The notes under the pieces were generated by a model, which saw nothing but the letters and a program-made list of their open reading frames with translations, made no database searches and was not told the origin of the DNA. A DNA stretch of 57,486 bases. It comes from Nanobdellota archaeon (GTDB lineage Archaea; Nanobdellota; Nanobdellia; Pacearchaeales; GW2011-AR1). The DNA lies in assembly GCA_038045985.1 (NCBI GenBank), contig JBBSXA010000030.1, positions 1 to 57,486 on the forward strand, in the 5' to 3' direction. Shown in pieces: positions 2,007 through 34,193 of the stretch; position 1 is the first letter of the stretch; each line of letters starts with the position of its first letter. The position numbers and the translations under genes are program-made.

Positions 2007-2153
2007 TGGCTCTGGGGAGAATTTAACTCCCGACCCCTGCCTGACTCAGCACAATTTGTTGAACGCATAGACTGAAAATTGGAATTTTCTGCCGATTTGC
2101 CGAACTTCATTCTTCTCATGAGAGCAGTGCTCGTAACACTGAGCTACAGAGCC
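2007..2153 (-). tRNA. tRNA with anticodon CAU (Met or Ile2), ~74-nt intron at or next to position 37/38
   Basis: Minus-strand read: GGCTCTG TA GCTC AGTGTTAC GAGC A CTGCT CTCATGA [~74 nt] GGCAG GGGTC GGGAG TTAAATT CTCCC CAGAGCC A. All four stems pair, with one G-U in the anticodon stem. Confidence 0.75.
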
Positions 2154-3538: not shown

Positions 3539-4057
3539 TTATGTGCGTGTCCATGAACATTCGTAATATGAAACATCGCCTTCTTCATCAAGGATTGCAA
3601 GAAGAAGCTTCTTTTTTGTGCTATGAGCCACCCTATTTTTTGCTGCAAATTCCTGCCATGTGAATTTGTTTGATTCTGTGTCTATAAAAACAATCCATTT
3701 TGCATGAGTATCTCCGGGCTTTTTTCCTTTTTCATAAACTCTGAAATCTGCTCCGAATTTTAGCGCTGTTTTGACAATATAGCCTTTATCTCTAAGATCT
3801 TTGAAGACAGTATATTTTGAATAGACTCTTTTATCCAACTTTTGGAGTTTTTTTATTGCCTGCCCTTTATCAAGAATTTTTCCTTTGCTTAAGATTTCCA
3901 GTTTTTCCTTTTCAATTAGGTACAATGCTTCTGTTATCGTGTACTGAATTTTTTCTCCTAGCGGCTCTCCGAAATGGCTTTTTTTGTGAAGAGAGAAAGC
4001 GTCTGCTGAGTTGCTTGTCACAGAGCTTCCTAAAATGTGCGCTTGGATTTTTTCCAT
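3539..4057 (-). CDS. endA: tRNA-splicing endonuclease
   Basis: LRDKGYIVKTALKFGADFRVYEKG...HAKWIVFI...AHSTKKKLLLAI match EndA catalytic-domain motifs. The first ATG is at 4057; the track start at 4078 is a TTG. Confidence 0.85.
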   Translation of the reverse strand: MEKIQAHILGSSVTSNSADAFSLHKKSHFGEPLGEKIQYTITEALYLIEKEKLEILSKGKILDKGQAIKKLQKLDKRVYSKYTVFKDLRDKGYIVKTALKFGADFRVYEKGKKPGDTHAKWIVFIDTESNKFTWQEFAAKNRVAHSTKKKLLLAILDEEGDVSYYECSWTRT

Positions 4058-4109
4058 TGTAAAAAGAATAGAAGGCAATATTTAAAAGTTCCTAGATGAT
4101 TATTGTTTT

Positions 4110-7100
4110 ATGGCATACAACTTCCAATTAATAGAAAAGAAATGGCAGAAGAAGTGGGAAGAAAAGAAGATTTTTCAAGTGAAGGAAAATGAAAAAGGCA
4201 AGAAGAAATTTTATGTCCTTGACATGTTTCCTTACCCCTCTGGAGAAGGTTTGCATATGGGTCATGCTTTTGTTTTTTCCCTAGGAGATATTTATGCCAG
4301 ATACAAGAGGCTTCAAGGATACAATGTTCTTTATCCTATAGGCTATGATTCTCTTGGATTGCCTGCAGAGAATGCTGCAATAAAAAAAGGAATTCATCCG
4401 GAGGTTTATACTGCAAAGTCTATTGCTAACTTTATGAAGCAGCAGAAGGCGATGGGATGGAGTTATGACTGGAACAGAATGTTCAAGACTTCTGATCCTG
4501 AATTTTATGTATGGGATCAGTGGATTTTTCTTAAAATGCTTGAAAAAGGGCTTGCTTGCAGGAAAAAATCTGCTGTTAACTTTTGCAGTAAATGCCAAAC
4601 TGTGCTTGCTAATGAGCAGGTTGTTGGAGGTAAGTGTTGGAGACATGAAGATACTAATGTAGAAATTAAGCATCTTGAGCAATGGTATTACAAAACTACA
4701 AATTATGCTGAAGAGCTGCTTTCAGGTTTAGATAAATTGGAATGGCCTGAAAGAGCTAAAACAATGCAGAGAAATTGGATTGGAAAAAGCTATGGGACAG
4801 AGATTGAGTTTGAAGTTGAGAATCCAGAAAGAAAGATTTCTAATGTTGTTATTGTACATGGAAGTGCTGATGACAAAAATGATAAAGAGTACAATAGACA
4901 TTGGATGATTTGGGCTAGAAAAAGATTGGAAGAAAATGGTATTAAGGTGCTTGCTCCAAATATGCCAGAACCTTGGGGTTCTAGCTATGAATCTTGGAAG
5001 AAAGAATTTGAAAAAATTTCGAACGGTATTAATGAAAATAGTATTTTAATTGGGCATAGCAGAGGTACTGCTTTTTTTGTAAAATGGCTGGGAGAAACTG
5101 GGAAAAAAGTTAAGAAATTAATATTAGTTGCTCCTTGGAAAGTTCCTGATAAGGAATTTAAAAAAAGTTTTTATAATTTTGACATAGACATAACTGTGAA
5201 GAATCAGGTTAATGAAATTGTTTATTTTACTTCTAATAATGAGGAAGCAGATGGAAGAAAAAGTTTGAAGATGTTTTTGGATGTAATTGGTGGCAGGGTT
5301 GTGGAATTAAAGAATCATGGACATTTTACGCGTGAAGAAATGGGGACAGACGAATTCCCTGAAATTTTGGCAGAAATTAATCCAAATGAAAAATGGCCTA
5401 TATTCACAACGAGACCCGATACTGTCTACGGAGTTACTTTTATGGTGATTTCTGCACAACATTCTAGACTTTACGAATTAGTTACAAAAGAACATAAAAA
5501 AAGTGTTGATAATTTTTTGAAGAAACTTGGGAGCGTTTCAGAGAAAGAACTTGAGCTTATGGGAAAAGATGGTGTTTTTACAGGCTCTTATGCAATTAAT
5601 CCAATGACTAAAGAAAGAATTCCTATTTACGCAGGAAATTTTGTTGTTGCAGATTATGGTTCAGGAATGGTTATGGCTGTTCCTGCGCACGACCAGAGAG
5701 ATTATGAATTTGCGAAGAAATATGGTTTGAAAATTAAGCAGGTTATTTCTCCAATGTATACAAATATGACTGGTTCTGATGCTTATAGGCATAATGAAGA
5801 GCCTGTTAAAAGAAAAGCAGTTGTTGCGATTGTTAAAAATCCAAAGAATAACAAATATTTACTTTTGCAGTGGAAGAAAAATGATTGGAGGGGTTTTGTT
5901 ATTGGAGGTCTTGAAAAAGGAGAAGATCTAATAAAAGCTGCTAAAAGAGAGATTGAAGAAGAAACAGGATATAATGATATTAAATTTGTTAGAAAGCTTG
6001 ATGGTGTTGTTCATTCTAGGTTTTACCATGAAGTTAAAAAGCAGAATAGAGAAGCTGAATTTGAAACTATTTACTTTGAGTTAAACAGTGAAAAGAAAAG
6101 CAAAGTAAAGGAAGAAGAAAATAAGATTCATTCTATTGTTTGGATTGATGAAGATAAAGTTGATAGTTTTCTTGTTAGAGATAATGATATTCAAGTTATT
6201 TGGAGAAAGTTTAAAGGCAAGGAGTGTTATGAAGGCTACGGAAAGCTAATTAATTCAGGAGATTTTAATGATCTTGATAATGATGAAGCGAAAGAACATA
6301 TTGTCAAGTGGCTTGAATCTAAAAAACTTGGGGGAAAAAAAGTTCAGTATAGGCTAAAAGATTGGCTTATTTCCAGGCAAAGATATTGGGGAACACCTAT
6401 TCCTATTGTTTATTGCGATAAATGTGGAATTATTCCTTTGCAGGAAAAAGAACTTCCAGTTACACTACCTAAGAATGTAAAGTTTGGAAAAGGAAATCCT
6501 CTTCTTTCCAATGAAAAATGGATTAATACTAATTGTCCTAAATGCAAAGGAAAAGCTAAAAGGGAAACAGACACTATGGACACTTTTGCGAATTCTTCAT
6601 GGTATTATTTAAGATATGCTGATTCAAAAAATAAGAAAAAGATATTTGATTCTAAAATGGCAAACTATTGGTGCCCAATAGATCAGTATATTGGCGGGCC
6701 AGAGCATATAACAATGCATTTAATTTACATAAGATTTTACACAAAATTTTTGAGAGATTTAGGTCTTATTGACTTTGATGAACCTGCTTTGAGATATTTC
6801 ACTCAAGGAGTTGTTAAAGGCAGTGATGGAAGCAGAATGAGCAAGTCTAAAGGAAATGTTGTAGAACCTTTGGATACTATTGAAAAATATGGTGCTGATT
6901 CTTTGAGATTATATTTAATGAGCGCTTCTGCTCCGGATAGTGATTTTGACTGGGATGAGAAAGGCATTCAAAGTAGCTTTAAATTTTTGCATAAAGTTTA
7001 TGATTATTTTTATGATGTTAAATTTAGCAAGGCTGATGAAAGAGTTGAGAGCAAGCTGAACAAGACTGTCAAAGAAGTTGCAAATTTAGTTGAAGATTTT

Positions 7101-7580
7101 AAGCATAATTTGGCAATAATAAAAATTAGGGGATTTTTTGATTATATTTATGAAAAAAAAATTGACAAAAAAACTGTCGAGAGTTTTTTGAAGATTTTGC
7201 ATATTTATTGCCCTTTTATTACTGAGGAAATTTGGGCAAACATTGGCGGAAAAAATTTCATAAGCTTAAGTTCTTGGCCAAAAGTTGATGAAAAAAAGAT
7301 AAATGAAGAGTTTGAAAAAGAAGATAAGATGATTGATGAAGTTGTCAGTGATGTGAATAACATTGTTAAGATAGTTAAAGAGCGCGGAAAAGAAGTTAGC
7401 AAGCTGTATTTGTATGTTATTCCTAAAGATGTCTCAGTTTATTTAGCTAATAAAAGCGAAATAGAGAAGAGAACTACTCTTAAGATGGAAGTTTACGCAG
7501 TCAATGACATAAATAAGAAAGATCCTGAAGGAAAATCTTCAAAGGCAAAGCCAAATCGTCCAGCCATATATTTAGAATAA
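4110..7580 (+). CDS. leuS: leucyl-tRNA synthetase, bacterial-type, with two in-frame domain insertions (1156 aa)
   Basis: FPYPSGEGLHMGHAF (HIGH), GYDSLGLPAENAAIKKG, TTRPDTVYGVTFMV and AVPAHDQRDYEFAKKYGL (CP1 editing), YRLKDWLISRQRYWGTPIP, SKSKGN (KMSKS). Confidence 0.95.
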   Translation: MAYNFQLIEKKWQKKWEEKKIFQVKENEKGKKKFYVLDMFPYPSGEGLHMGHAFVFSLGDIYARYKRLQGYNVLYPIGYDSLGLPAENAAIKKGIHPEVYTAKSIANFMKQQKAMGWSYDWNRMFKTSDPEFYVWDQWIFLKMLEKGLACRKKSAVNFCSKCQTVLANEQVVGGKCWRHEDTNVEIKHLEQWYYKTTNYAEELLSGLDKLEWPERAKTMQRNWIGKSYGTEIEFEVENPERKISNVVIVHGSADDKNDKEYNRHWMIWARKRLEENGIKVLAPNMPEPWGSSYESWKKEFEKISNGINENSILIGHSRGTAFFVKWLGETGKKVKKLILVAPWKVPDKEFKKSFYNFDIDITVKNQVNEIVYFTSNNEEADGRKSLKMFLDVIGGRVVELKNHGHFTREEMGTDEFPEILAEINPNEKWPIFTTRPDTVYGVTFMVISAQHSRLYELVTKEHKKSVDNFLKKLGSVSEKELELMGKDGVFTGSYAINPMTKERIPIYAGNFVVADYGSGMVMAVPAHDQRDYEFAKKYGLKIKQVISPMYTNMTGSDAYRHNEEPVKRKAVVAIVKNPKNNKYLLLQWKKNDWRGFVIGGLEKGEDLIKAAKREIEEETGYNDIKFVRKLDGVVHSRFYHEVKKQNREAEFETIYFELNSEKKSKVKEEENKIHSIVWIDEDKVDSFLVRDNDIQVIWRKFKGKECYEGYGKLINSGDFNDLDNDEAKEHIVKWLESKKLGGKKVQYRLKDWLISRQRYWGTPIPIVYCDKCGIIPLQEKELPVTLPKNVKFGKGNPLLSNEKWINTNCPKCKGKAKRETDTMDTFANSSWYYLRYADSKNKKKIFDSKMANYWCPIDQYIGGPEHITMHLIYIRFYTKFLRDLGLIDFDEPALRYFTQGVVKGSDGSRMSKSKGNVVEPLDTIEKYGADSLRLYLMSASAPDSDFDWDEKGIQSSFKFLHKVYDYFYDVKFSKADERVESKLNKTVKEVANLVEDFKHNLAIIKIRGFFDYIYEKKIDKKTVESFLKILHIYCPFITEEIWANIGGKNFISLSSWPKVDEKKINEEFEKEDKMIDEVVSDVNNIVKIVKERGKEVSKLYLYVIPKDVSVYLANKSEIEKRTTLKMEVYAVNDINKKDPEGKSSKAKPNRPAIYLE
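4842..5385 (+). other. Insertion 1 in LeuRS: YdeN/RBBP9-like alpha/beta serine hydrolase domain
   Basis: VVIVHGS...HWMIWARKRLEENGIKVLAPNMPEP...ILIGHSRGTAF...LILVAPW...NHGHFTREE. This is the family-typical order with a GHSxG nucleophile and a C-terminal HGHF. It lies between the IEFEV segment and TTRPDT. Confidence 0.7.
5754..6235 (+). other. Insertion 2 in LeuRS: NUDIX hydrolase domain
   Basis: Perfect Nudix box GGLEKGEDLIKAAKREIEEETGY (GX5EX7REUXEEXGU) at ~5904..5972. It lies between the CP1 end (KQVISP) and the YGKLINSGDF segment. Confidence 0.8.
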
Positions 7581-7591
7581 GACGATTTGGC
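7550..7591 (+). promoter_or_regulatory. 11-bp perfect hairpin whose 20-nt loop contains the leuS stop codon
   Basis: gccaaatcgtc (7550-7560) pairs with gacgatttggc (7581-7591); the TAA is at 7578-7580. Confidence 0.6.
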
Positions 7592-7610
7592 ATTAATTCG
7601 TCCAAGCTTG

Positions 7611-7652
7611 GCCAAATTAAAGCCAGGAAGGCCTGCAATTTATTTGGAGTGA
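7611..7652 (+). repeat. Ghost copy of the LeuRS C-terminus (AKLKPGRPAIYLE*), in frame with leuS after its TAA
   Basis: Compare the real end SKAKPNRPAIYLE*. The differences are mostly synonymous (cgt/agg, cca/cct, gcc/gca, ata/att, tta/ttg, gaa/gag). Confidence 0.7.
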
Positions 7653-7656
7653 TTTT

Positions 7657-9426
7657 CTACTCAAGCACAGCCTTAATTCTTCTTACCCCTGCAGAAACTG
7701 ATTCTTCCTTGATTATTTTGAATTTTCCAATGTCTTTTGTGTTTTTGGCATGAGGGCCTGAGCAAAATTCCTTTGAGAAATTTCCTATAGAATATATTGA
7801 TACAATTTTACCATACTTTTCTTCAAATGAGCCTATTGCTCCTGATTTTTTAGCCTGCTCTAAATTCATTTCTTCTCTTTTTATTTCCAGAGATTTTTTA
7901 ATTTGTTCATTTACAAGATTTTCAATTTGCTTTAGCTCTGATTCTGTCAATTTTCTTTCAAAGTTAAAGTCTAATCTCAATCTTTCTGGAGTTATGTTTG
8001 AGCCTTTCTGGAATATATTTTTATTTTTCAGCACTTGTCTAAGAGCGGTCAAGAGCAAATGCGTTGCTGTGTGAAGTTTTGTTGTTTGCTCAGAATTATC
8101 TGCCAAGCCACTTTTGAATTTTCCTGCAGAGGCTGTTTGAGAAAGTTTTTGATGCTCCTCTAATTTTTTAAAGAATGATTTTTCATCGATATTAATATTT
8201 TTCTCTTCTGCTAATTCTTTTGTCATTTCAAGCGGAAAGCCATAACTTTGATATAATAAAAAGACATTTTCTCCAGATATTCTTTTTTTCTTTTTTGTTA
8301 TGTTATCAAAAAGGCTTAGGCCCTTTTCAAGGGTTTTTTCAAATTTTTCTTCTTCTCTATTTATCTCATTGTAAATAAATTCTCTTTTTTTGTGTATGTC
8401 TTTGTAGTCTGAATAGGTTTCAAATACTTTTTCTGCAATTGGATTTATTAAATTTTGGTCTGTGAGTCCCAATTTTCTTAGGTTGATTATTGCTCTTCTT
8501 ATTAATCTTCTAAGAACGTATCCTTGCTCTTTGTTGCTTGGTATTATTTCTTCTGCTAATATGAATACTGAGGCTTTAATGTGGTCTGCAATTATTCTCA
8601 TTGTTTTTTTATGATCATTGTATTTCCTTTTTGATAACTCTTCAATCTTTTGTATTATGGGCTTCCAGACTTCTGTTTGATAGTTGTCTGTTGTTCCATT
8701 TAAAATTGCTAAAGTTCTTTCAACACCCATTCCTGTATCAACGTTTTTTTGCTTTGCTGGAAGATATTTTCCATTTTCATCTTTAATATACTCCATGAAG
8801 ACGTCATTCCAGATTTCAACCCATTTGTTCCCACCAGTTGCTAAGGTAGAATCATTTGGATTAAACTCTTCAGGTACTTTATTTGATTTATCTTTCCAGT
8901 AAAACATTTCTGTGTCAGGTCCGCAAGGTCCTGTTGTTCCTGCTGGTCCCCACCAATTGTCTTCTTTTCCTAATGGAGTGATTTTGTTAATCCCTAAAGA
9001 TTTCCAAATTTTTTCAGATTCAGTATCTCTCTTTGTAGTTTTATCACCTGCAAAAATTGTAACTGCTAATTTTTCTTTGGGAATTTTAAGCTCTTTTGTT
9101 AAAAACTGGAAACTGAATTCAATAGCTTCTTTTTTCCAGTAGTTTCCTAAAGACCAATTGCCCAACATCTCAAAAAATGTATGATGCGTTTCATCTCCGA
9201 CTTCATCTATGTCGCCGGTTCTTATGCATTTTTGTAGGCTAACTAGATTTTTCCCAAGAGGATGCTTTTGACCTAAAAGATAGGGAACTAAAGGATGCAT
9301 TCCTGCTGTTGTAAACAAAACTGACGGATCTTCTTTTGGAACTAGTGATGAGTTTTCTATACGTTTATGCCCTTTTGATTCAAAGAATTTTATGTACTTT
9401 TCAATAAGCTGTTTGCGGGTTATCAT
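7657..9426 (-). CDS. alaS: alanyl-tRNA synthetase, short bacterial-type form (589 aa, no C-Ala domain)
   Basis: FTTAGMHPLVPYLLG, FFEMLGNWSLGNYWKKEAI, editing-domain HTATHLL and CSGPH motifs. Confidence 0.9.
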   Translation of the reverse strand: MITRKQLIEKYIKFFESKGHKRIENSSLVPKEDPSVLFTTAGMHPLVPYLLGQKHPLGKNLVSLQKCIRTGDIDEVGDETHHTFFEMLGNWSLGNYWKKEAIEFSFQFLTKELKIPKEKLAVTIFAGDKTTKRDTESEKIWKSLGINKITPLGKEDNWWGPAGTTGPCGPDTEMFYWKDKSNKVPEEFNPNDSTLATGGNKWVEIWNDVFMEYIKDENGKYLPAKQKNVDTGMGVERTLAILNGTTDNYQTEVWKPIIQKIEELSKRKYNDHKKTMRIIADHIKASVFILAEEIIPSNKEQGYVLRRLIRRAIINLRKLGLTDQNLINPIAEKVFETYSDYKDIHKKREFIYNEINREEEKFEKTLEKGLSLFDNITKKKKRISGENVFLLYQSYGFPLEMTKELAEEKNINIDEKSFFKKLEEHQKLSQTASAGKFKSGLADNSEQTTKLHTATHLLLTALRQVLKNKNIFQKGSNITPERLRLDFNFERKLTESELKQIENLVNEQIKKSLEIKREEMNLEQAKKSGAIGSFEEKYGKIVSIYSIGNFSKEFCSGPHAKNTKDIGKFKIIKEESVSAGVRRIKAVLE

Positions 9427-32603: not shown

Positions 32604-32662
32604 TAAATAAGGTTTATTTATTCTTGAGCAAATTTAATAAACTCTTATTTCTTTTTGCTTTT

Positions 32663-34102
32663 ATGAATATTAATTATGGAGACATGGGTTTTAAGGCTGG
32701 ACTGGAAATTCATCAGCAGCTTGACTCTAAAAAATTGTTCTGCAACTGCCCGAGCATTTTAAGAGGAGACACCCCCAGCTTTGAGATTAAGAGAAAATTG
32801 CATACTGTTGCGGGCGAATCTGGAGAAATTGATGTTGCAGCAGAGCACGAAGCTGCTCTTGACAGGGAGTTTGTTTATCAGGCTTACGATACTACATGCC
32901 TGGTTGAGCTGGATGAAGAGCCTCCCCATGAAATAAATAAAGATGCGTTAATGACTGCTTTGCATATTTCTCTTTTGATGAATGCCAAGATAATTCCAAT
33001 TTCACAGATAATGAGGAAGACGGTTATTGATGGAAGCAATACTGGAGGTTTTCAGAGAACTGTGATGATTGCCAGGGATGGTTTTATTGAGACTTCTTAT
33101 GGAAATGTTCGAATTTTAGGAATTTTTCTTGAAGAAGATTCTGCCAGACTTGTTTTGAAAGATGAAAAAAGCGCTGTTTACAGGCTTGACAGGCTTGGAA
33201 TTCCTTTAATTGAAATTGCCACAGAGCCTGATTTGAAAAATGCAGAACACGCAAAAGAAACTGCTTTGAAAATTGGAGAGATACTTAGAGCGTGCAAAGT
33301 AAAAAGAGGAATTGGAACTATTAGACAGGACATTAATATTTCTATAAAAGGAAGCAATAGAGTTGAGCTTAAAGGCTTTCAAGATCCTAAAATAATGTTG
33401 AAGAGTATTGAAGAAGAAGTAAGAAGGCAGCTGGCTTATGTTGGCGCTGGAAAAAAAAATTCTTCTGAAGTCAGAAATGTTTTGCCTAATGGAAGTTCTG
33501 AGTTTATGAGGCCGATGCCTGGTGCAGACAGAATGTATCCTGAAACTGATCTTCCTTTGCTGAAAATTCCATTGGATTTTATTAATAGCGCTAAGAAAAA
33601 CTTGCCTAGGCTAAGAGAAGAAATTGAAGAAGAATTAAGAAATCAGGGGCTTAGCCAGGAATATATTTCTATTCTTTTGAAATCTAATGAGATTGAAAAG
33701 TACAAAGAACTTTATTATATTGTTCCAAAGCCAAATTTTGTTGCAAAGGCTGTTTTGGTTTTTCCAAAAGAGATTGCCGCGAAAAAAGGGATTGCATTTG
33801 AAAGGGTTTTAGAAATACTCGATGAGCATTATTTTGAAGTTTTTAATAAAGTTGCCCAGGGAAAACTCAAAGAAGAAGATGTGAAGCATATTTTTGAGAG
33901 GCTTGTTGATGGAAAGAGTTTTTCCGAAGCTGCGAAACTTGACAAGCTTAGCGTGAATGATTTGGAAGAAGCTGTCCTTAAAATTATGAAAAGCAAGCCA
34001 GGACTTTCAGAGAATGCTTATATGGGGTTGGTTATGAGGGAGCTTAGAGGAAAAATTAGTGGAAAAGAAGCGAGCGAAATAATAAAGAAACTTATGCACT
34101 AA
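32663..34102 (+). CDS. gatE: Glu-tRNA(Gln) amidotransferase subunit E (short form)
   Basis: GLEIHQQLDSKKLFCNCPS, a GatB/E catalytic core and a C-terminal YqeY-like tail MGLVMRELRGK. The ATG at 32663 is preferred to the TTG at 32624. Confidence 0.88.
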   Translation: MNINYGDMGFKAGLEIHQQLDSKKLFCNCPSILRGDTPSFEIKRKLHTVAGESGEIDVAAEHEAALDREFVYQAYDTTCLVELDEEPPHEINKDALMTALHISLLMNAKIIPISQIMRKTVIDGSNTGGFQRTVMIARDGFIETSYGNVRILGIFLEEDSARLVLKDEKSAVYRLDRLGIPLIEIATEPDLKNAEHAKETALKIGEILRACKVKRGIGTIRQDINISIKGSNRVELKGFQDPKIMLKSIEEEVRRQLAYVGAGKKNSSEVRNVLPNGSSEFMRPMPGADRMYPETDLPLLKIPLDFINSAKKNLPRLREEIEEELRNQGLSQEYISILLKSNEIEKYKELYYIVPKPNFVAKAVLVFPKEIAAKKGIAFERVLEILDEHYFEVFNKVAQGKLKEEDVKHIFERLVDGKSFSEAAKLDKLSVNDLEEAVLKIMKSKPGLSENAYMGLVMRELRGKISGKEASEIIKKLMH

Positions 34103-34136
34103 TTTTTCTGCAGCTTCGTCCAAGCGTGGCCAAATC

Positions 34137-34193
34137 AGAGGAAAGATTTCAGGGAGCGAGGCTGTTGAAATAATCAGGAAGCTGATGAAGTGA
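34137..34193 (+). repeat. Ghost copy of the GatE C-terminus (RGKISGSEAVEIIRKLMK*), +1 frame relative to gatE
   Basis: Compare the real end RGKISGKEASEIIKKLMH*. Many differences are synonymous. It is preceded by tcgtccaagcgtggccaaat (34116-34135). Confidence 0.7.

Follow-up and report, generated by a model that had tools for sequence, protein, structure and literature searches.

In the 'gene hybrids' of fungal mitochondria (atp6 in Allomyces; atp6, atp9, cox2 and nad3 in Glomus), a mobile insert supplies the gene that it enters with a foreign, in-phase C-terminus, and the native C-terminus persists, unused, further downstream; the inserted end is the more diverged of the two, indicating horizontal transfer (PMC3630166). 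A similar arrangement is found at the 3' end of leuS, the gene for leucyl-tRNA synthetase (LeuRS), in a Pacearchaeota-like DPANN archaeon (genome G000, 0.89 Mb in 45 contigs). The locus, called W below, lies on contig JBBSXA010000030.1 (assembly GCA_038045985.1), whose 57,486 nucleotides constitute the window analysed here. As in the gene hybrids, leuS has an apparently foreign in-phase end (direct repeat 1, or DR1, 88-92% identical across non-sister lineages) and, downstream of it, a displaced end of the family-consensus type (DR2, the 'ghost'). However, the fungal inserts carry a homing-endonuclease open reading frame (ORF) of ~0.4-1 kb, to which they owe their mobility, whereas that of leuS measures 38 nt (7581-7618) and has no ORF; its host is an archaeal chromosome and its constant part a 24-nt palindrome.

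The palindrome recalls several kinds of small repeats. The Rickettsia palindromic elements (RPEs) are small palindromic repeats that lie in frame, and are translated, in many unrelated genes (PMC10969869). Likewise, among 92 distinct copies of the DPANN element with adequate flanks (drawn from G000 and from loci L035-L172), 51 are embedded in long sense ORFs, and of the 40 that are clearly intragenic, 32 are read as SSK[L/R]GQ. But RPEs are bacterial (Rickettsia) and ~100-150 bp long, while the DPANN element has 24 nt, or ~46 nt in its long form; no foreign gene end or ghost is reported for RPEs, and the duplications flanking the DPANN copies are very variable in length. Like a MITE (a miniature transposable element with inverted repeats), the DPANN unit is wholly an imperfect palindrome and is multi-copy (8-10 copies in G000, at most 17 in relatives), but the duplication made by a MITE is short and fixed in length by the parent transposase, whereas the DPANN flanks run from ~8 to 57 nt. 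With repetitive extragenic palindromes (REPs, REPtrons) and palindromic elements derived from the insertion sequences (IS) IS200/IS605, which are imperfect palindromes of 20-40 nt, the DPANN element shares fixed mismatches, a multi-copy state and a common position directly 3' of genes. REPs, however, are extragenic, are moved by a REP-flanked Y1 gene (encoding a REP-associated tyrosine transposase, RAYT) and make no duplications, while G000 is without a Y1 gene, the Y1 loci of its relatives are without the core of the palindrome, and the 51 copies just mentioned are intragenic. Very short hairpin or double-hairpin repeats also spread in the compact genomes of mitochondria, genes included; these are organellar, unlike the DPANN repeat, which is chromosomal, and we know of no demonstration that they bring replacement gene ends. 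Among such mitochondrial elements, double-hairpin elements, GC clusters and repetitive hairpin elements have been named (PMC2800124). Finally, in homology-facilitated illegitimate recombination, or in re-integration by way of a conserved gene end, the homology of a conserved gene anchors one side and a short homology joins the other, leaving two diverged copies of the anchor, as at leuS; but this is a general process, which explains neither the recurrence of one 24-nt palindrome nor the inverted copy of the flank.

Our favoured explanation, to which we give a probability of roughly 70%, is that leuS once ended in the ghost, its native 3' terminus, which was shifted downstream by the recombination of a small module into the gene. 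Three parts would make up this module: a foreign segment comprising the last ~16 codons of leuS and the stop, which would now serve as the working terminus; 14 nt that repeat the beginning of that segment in inverted orientation, giving rise to an 11-bp hairpin around the stop; and the 24-nt imperfect palindrome, a dispersed and apparently mobile repeat of Pacearchaeota-like DPANN archaea. It would have entered several LeuRS lineages, displacing the resident end in each. Because the incoming piece holds a complete gene end, LeuRS would stay intact and the old end would be kept as an untranslated copy. The features of the locus and of other insertions are given in Table 1.

Table 1. The leuS locus and other insertion sites of the 24-nt element (coordinates are those of the window)
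Feature	Coordinates	Strand	Description
leuS	4110..7580	+	LeuRS of the bacterial type (1156 aa), carrying Ser_hydrolase and NUDIX inserts; TAA stop at 7578-7580
DR1, functional leuS terminus	7533..7580	+	KSSKAKPNRPAIYLE and stop; last ~16 codons; the stretch repeated in the ghost is 7547-7580
Hairpin 5' arm (11 bp)	7550..7560	+	within the codons K-P-N-R-P
Inverted repeat (IR)	7581..7594	+	inverted copy of the DR1 start, matching AAAGCCAAATCGTC (7547-7560) in reverse complement but for one mismatch; the hairpin 3' arm is 7581-7591, and 7588-7594 doubles as outer left arm of the long palindrome
Palindromic unit (24 nt)	7595..7618	+	AA-TTCGTCCAAGCTTGGCCAAA-TT; 20-nt core 7597-7616; dispersed DPANN repeat; imperfect extended palindrome around the unit, 7588-7625
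DR2, ghost	7619..7652	+	AAAGCC...GGAGTGA; encodes (K)KPGRPAIYLE and stop, family-consensus KPG type
alaS	7657..9426	-	convergent with leuS; alaS stop 4 nt beyond the ghost stop
Putative gatE (ORF 32624-34102) site	34046..34193	+	ORF end RGKISGKEASEIIKKLMH, stop 34100-34102; then 12-nt linker, core 34115-34134, 'tc', ghost RGKISGSEAVEIIRKLMK and stop (34137-34193); repeat 57 nt
L129			repeat 18 nt, identical (18/18), in frame
L057			repeat 27 nt, identical (27/27), tRNA 3' end
G000 C31			repeat ~27 nt, one mismatch and one indel
G000 C19			repeat 25 nt
G000 C5			repeat 13 nt
G000 C9			repeat is the ribosome-binding site and start region

The TAA of leuS forms the final three bases of the loop of a hairpin whose arms, gccaaatcgtc (7550-7560) and gacgatttggc (7581-7591), pair perfectly; when one mismatch is allowed, the stem reaches 14 nt (7547-7560 with 7581-7594). 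This structure, which a first-pass annotation of the window had pointed out at the same coordinates, folds at -17.1 kcal/mol (z = -6.3), and none of 200 shuffles folded equally well. Past the stop, the frame continues as DDLALIRPSLAKLKPGRPAIYLE to a TGA at 7650-7652. That this is a second C-terminus, as had been proposed, is borne out: nine of ten residues and the stop match the real leuS terminus, whereas the best match in 20,000 dinucleotide shuffles of the spacer was 5/10 and the best among ~20,000 random 76-mers of the window 4/10. The match lies far outside chance, so the fortuitous resemblance that the annotation had allowed for falls away. The palindrome CCAAGCTTGG at 7602-7611 and a third GCCAAAT at 7611-7617 are likewise where they had been placed. 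As to the alternative pairing suggested for the latter, the sequence exists, but it is simply one of the element's own arms (the right one), and the palindrome too is made of these arms. The key feature, which had been overlooked, is the spacer itself, a dispersed repeat.

The palindrome is multi-copy and lineage-specific. Its core, TTCGYCCAAGCKTGGYCAAA, is the 20-nt block common to the leuS loci; it consists of 7-nt inverted arms around AAGCKT, with fixed mismatches at positions 3/18 (C.A) and 5/16 (pyrimidine.pyrimidine). The constant unit of 24 nt is laid out as xy-core-y'x', where the outer dinucleotides vary yet remain complementary, AC/GT being the most frequent pair and AA/TT the one found at leuS. 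To the left of the unit there is often a second hairpin, of variable sequence. With up to two mismatches, the core occurs in 48 of the 401 genomes of the order and in 29 of its 153 genera, all of them in one family, at up to 17 copies per genome; the reversed pattern, used as a control, gave about zero matches in the same 401 genomes. In G000 the core is present eight times within two mismatches, and a tolerance of three adds a further two; one of the G000 copies is the gatE core in the window. Across 185,579 species genomes (one per species), the exact core has 95 matches, ~85 of which fall in metagenome-assembled genomes of Pacearchaeota, Woesearchaeota or Nanoarchaeota; the bacterial matches number ~10, against a chance estimate of ~9 for the 596 Gb searched. 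Rfam 15 returned only two chance-level matches over 7480-7720 (E = 1.5 and 6.1), and tRNAs only over the whole window.

The leuS module is common to unrelated LeuRS lineages, and its identity there is far above that of the gene. Nearly all of the 120 closest LeuRS terminate in KPG[K/R]P[G/A]IYLE, and 29 relatives from other genera have a single terminus only, with no ghost. The alignment of relatives that the first-pass annotation had called for does reveal ghosts, in the two closest LeuRS: KAKKAKPGKPGIYLE, out of frame, in L031 (P0001), and GDLSLLRPSVVKVKPGKLGIYLE, in frame, in L032/L033 (P0003). Similarity between the loci extends precisely to the ghost stop and no further, and different genes follow it. 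L172 (P0017) is a fourth carrier: its end SSKAKPNRPSIFLE and stop are succeeded by GACGACTTGCCATTAC, the core and the ghost KPGKPGIYLE. The module carriers are thus W, L031, L032 and L172. The loci of the sisters P0007, P0009 and P0002 and those of P0015 and P0049, which were read, are without the module; the element was absent from 11 metagenome relatives in a follow-up protein scan, and the leuS-specific pattern of core plus ghost found no match in the metagenome scan.

The distribution of these carriers does not follow the phylogeny of the gene. The LeuRS tree places W beside its sister P0001 and P0003 with the module-free P0007-P0009, and puts P0017 in a distant clade. Forcing the four carriers to be monophyletic costs 158.9 units of log-likelihood (P = 5e-7 in the approximately unbiased test, with the last 18 residues removed), for a group that was defined by the trait but named after a tree had been viewed. 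Between W and L172, the gene bodies are 63% identical at the nucleotide level overall and 35% at fourfold sites, while DR1 matches at 44 of 48 positions, IR plus core at 34 of 39 and the ghost at 25 of 33. Module identity is 87-92% where the silent sites of the gene are saturated (35%), and DR1 of W is 88-92% identical to its counterparts in L172 and L032. The module of W is nearer to those of these two loci, with their 72-nt period, their KSSKAK/PNRP sequence and their hairpin, than to that of its sister L031, whose ghost has retained 14 extra bases. As for the hairpin, L032 keeps 10 of the 11 pairs, with one compensated change, and L172 keeps 9 of 11; it is absent from L031.

Real and ghost copies differ from one another in the fashion of orthologues. 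At leuS, the 33-nt copies show 11 base differences, which leave 3 codons identical and make 7 synonymous changes (the stop counted) and 1 replacement; when 11 substitutions were placed at random in 3,000 simulations, replacements averaged 6.8 and were never so few. This agrees with the earlier remark that the two copies are distinguished mostly at synonymous positions. Over 20 coding DR pairs (229 codons), 78 codons are identical, 88 synonymous and 63 replaced, and the differences at codon positions 1, 2 and 3 number 55, 53 and 117, respectively. Fifteen of the 20 pairs depart from random substitution at P < 0.01; the set as a whole contains several switches between AGY and TCN serine codons. 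When ghosts are compared with ghosts across genomes, the codon-position pattern is alike (21/29/58). The ghosts appear to have diverged while still coding, because differences of this mainly synonymous kind are found at 20 gene ends and between the ghosts themselves. The ghosts at leuS are all of the KPG consensus type. With the real terminus of P0007, which is module-free, they agree at 29-30 of 33 nt; for the four module-bearing genes, whose real ends are of PNRP type, the corresponding figure for these ends is 19-23 of 33. The relatives of gatE are too distant for its ghost to be placed in a lineage.

The same 20 DR pairs show an asymmetry: there are 68 sites with A in the real copy and G in the ghost but 39 with the opposite arrangement (P = 0.007), and the real copy is also C-richer. 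Adenine mutagenesis like that of diversity-generating retroelements was nevertheless rejected, since despite this excess of A in DR1 and G in DR2 the copy differences are not confined to adenines. The PNRP terminus was likewise rejected as a marker of the element: L004, P0015 and P0049 carry PNRP without it.

Copies elsewhere have features in common with leuS. Besides the 51 copies inside long sense ORFs, 31 of the 92 lie 0-60 nt past a sense stop. The 40 clearly intragenic copies (open for at least 10 codons on each side, in ORFs of at least 80 codons) include 32 in one frame (P = 2e-9), the fuller peptide being (T)SSK[L/R]GQ(S)K; in the long intragenic form, KA[E/K]PLAT precedes it. Many copies lie between two copies of local sequence, of which the right-hand one starts 0-3 nt past the core, and the overall range of repeat lengths is 8 to ~57 nt. 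At gene 3' ends, the segment from stop to core often repeats, in inverted orientation, the beginning of the upstream repeat, the leuS hairpin being one case. A perfect stem of at least 7 bp, formed by the last codons with this segment and enclosing or abutting the stop, is present at 11 of the 26 gene-3'-end copies versus 9% of controls (P = 9e-6); a stop within a hairpin is a recurrent by-product. In L135, a separate and independent insertion has occurred in leuS with a different junction, which lies within the KPGKPG codons at their second AAGCCAGG.

Some loci are more complex. Two in-frame copies of the element lie ~60 nt apart in one ORF of L129 (~4100-4300): one is intact and has the identical 18-nt repeat of Table 1, and the other is degenerate (CTCGCCCAAGCGTGGCCGAG). 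In L036 and L143 (~700-850), the 5' end of a tRNA is present in triplicate: one pair of repeats flanks the 24-nt element, and a second pair (17 nt) flanks another hairpin insert, of 37 nt, ctgaataacgtgatacgtttccttcatacttcaggaa.

How might the module have entered leuS? On the left side, entry would have taken place through homology in the conserved gene end, and on the right side through an in-register or microhomology join (AAAG/AAAGCC) at the edge of the element; either homology-facilitated recombination or the return of a repeat-flanked unit by re-integration could have been the mode. Another process would create new sites, with duplications 8 to ~57 nt long and, in some cases, a flank copied in inverted orientation. 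The first-pass suggestion that recombination or integration had replaced the 3' end and left a relic is supported, with the addition that the replacement came with a dispersed 24-nt palindrome and recurs in other LeuRS lineages and in other genes. On this reading, the hairpin and the ghost are by-products rather than translation signals; ghost frames vary and the layout recurs at tRNA ends, both of which speak against the ghost being translated.

Several points weigh against displacement of the native end by a recombining module. The 20 DR pairs were chosen by eye, partly via protein similarity, which biases them towards conserved pairs. Many copies, and some of the DR pairs, are orthologous, so that the totals overstate the number of independent events. 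The ghosts at leuS are all about equally near the consensus terminus and thus do not demonstrate that each originated in its own lineage. Three of the four leuS lineages have their ghost in frame, with a stable stem ~8 nt past the stop. The core was not found in viral contigs, and no movement enzyme was found in a search that covered Y1 transposases only. For the latter, G000 gave no match, and the Y1 loci L177-L180 contain no core within 4 mismatches. Y1 (of the IS200/IS605 or RAYT type) is not supported as the mobiliser: among 13 element-rich genomes 8 have it, among 13 element-free ones 4 (Fisher P = 0.24), and none adjoins a core.

A more specific proposal, which we put forward only tentatively, is that the 24-nt hairpin is the cis site of an ORF-less, homing-type DPANN element that invades the conserved ends of essential genes by means of a 'portable gene end' serving as homology arm. 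Such an element would target aminoacyl-tRNA synthetase genes, gatE and tRNAs, and would be mobilised in trans by a putative structure-specific nuclease or by the host recombination machinery. If so, ghost termini would be a readable record of the donors and recipients of DNA.

Among the alternatives to module-borne replacement, plain transposition with a long target-site duplication fares best, though we regard it as unlikely. It supposes that a single insertion in leuS duplicated ~34-48 nt, and that the upstream copy remained coding and the downstream copy then drifted in place. The near-identical flanks of young copies (L129, L057 and C31 in Table 1) are what it predicts, as is the observation that the right-hand repeats all begin within 3 nt of the core, and insertions that duplicate their target probably do create the new sites. 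However, drift would hit all codon positions, while the differences between real and ghost copies are strongly biased towards synonymous ones; moreover, the module remains 87-92% identical across lineages that are saturated at silent sites, and its carriers are not a clade. The repeat lengths are a further difficulty: they match no known transposase, and to our knowledge none of the IS or MITE families yields duplications of 8 to ~57 nt.

The invariance of the 20-nt core across genera and the fixed positions of its mismatches could be taken to mean that it is a domesticated 3'-end signal of the RNA or DNA (a terminator, an mRNA stabiliser or a protein-binding site between leuS and alaS), the hairpin being under selection and the ghost incidental. 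There is also a bias of orientation, 23 copies lying only after a sense stop versus 3 only before an antisense stop; the left hairpin often holds T-runs, and it is the minus strand of the core that has the more stable fold (-16.1 vs -12.4 kcal/mol). Such a role is quite improbable when set against the 51 of 92 copies that are read in frame as part of long sense ORFs, predominantly in a single frame, and against the patchy spread of the element through 48 of 401 genomes and 29 of 153 genera. In addition, Rfam gives no match to it, and sister lineages manage without it.

We attach even less credence to a site-specific recombination site of the attC, dif or att kind, in which the palindrome would be the crossover site of cassettes, and leuS and gatE would be empty cassettes. 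The geometry of arm, spacer and arm agrees, and the window does hold cargo cassettes (aspS and vapBC) between duplicated gene ends. But neither of these cassettes contains a core-like sequence, so the palindrome does not mark cassette boundaries in general. Inspection of the consensus shows none of the integron core sites GTTRRRY/RYYYAAC (IntI was not searched for), and flanking duplications of variable length are not predicted by such a mechanism. Gene-end recombination may be a general tendency underlying all the cassettes, both those of the window and that of L031 described below.

The first-pass annotation had offered readthrough or an alternative terminus as the other possible meaning of the ghost, and this fares worst. 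Programmed readthrough of the leuS TAA would give LeuRS a 24-residue extension ending in a second KPGRPAIYLE. The ghost is indeed open and in frame in W, L032 and L172, all with the 72-nt period, a stable stem begins ~8 nt past the stop, and the ghost has kept coding-like sequence. Yet it is equally well preserved where it is out of frame, namely in L031 (83-nt period), at gatE in the window (34 nt) and at L120. The hairpin enclosing the stop decays in relatives, and its 5' arm must melt before the ribosome gets to the stop; the same architecture recurs where translation plays no part, in 5' leaders and at the ends of tRNAs. Even low-level readthrough in this genome would, judging from the sequence, be unlikely. 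An archaeal bulge-helix-bulge intron can be dismissed: that motif has two 3-nt bulges on opposite strands with a 4-bp helix between them, while the fold here has two 1x1 mismatches (3/18 and 5/16), a tetraloop and no bulges, and the intragenic copies preserve the reading frame, as if translated.

The invasion of essential genes, without breaking them, by a hairpin repeat that comes with a replacement end has not been described in archaea, and no description of the element was found in the literature searched. DPANN genomes are tiny and nearly every one of their genes is essential; an element that supplies its own replacement end, or inserts in frame, shows how mobile DNA can persist in them at low cost. 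Where a real terminus is paired with a ghost, the two mark, in nature, recombination among lineages that cannot be cultured. There is also a warning for annotation: 'duplicated C-termini', 'in-frame extensions' and 7-residue inserts resembling SSKLGQS are scars of a repeat rather than recoding signals or conserved motifs, and the peptide (T)SSK[L/R]GQ(S)K is open to being mistaken by annotators for a conserved protein motif.

Several minor observations were made around leuS. The Ser_hydrolase domain of LeuRS occupies residues 247-420 (4848-5369 in the window) and the NUDIX domain residues 567-684 (5808-6161); both are placed around the editing domain, and inserts of this sort make the relatives range from ~800 to 1160 aa. 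In L031, a 367-aa gene without Pfam match (4964-6067) lies between the leuS ghost and alaS, where the window has only 7653-7656; in L172, L173 and L176, leuS is followed by a gene of similar length. The alaS gene of L031 itself has a real end (...SSQGVRRIKAILE and stop), then a 39-nt insert without the 24-nt core, then a ghost, KEASSAGVRRIKAVLEN and stop (6075-6165, minus strand), which resembles the real alaS end of the window.

Within DR1, GCCAAATCGTCCA (7550-7562) resembles the 3' end of the core fused to its 5' end (GGCCAAA joined to TTCGTCCA, with one T fewer), and in L032 a T/C variant in the counterpart of this stretch agrees with the core variant of that genome. This likeness may reflect a target preference, the trace of a tandem or circular form, or chance. 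Upstream of leuS, a 147-nt Rfam tRNA match (2007-2153, minus strand, 46 bits), which ARAGORN did not report, is probably a tRNA with a long intron; it adjoins a gene for a tRNA-splicing endonuclease (3539-4078).

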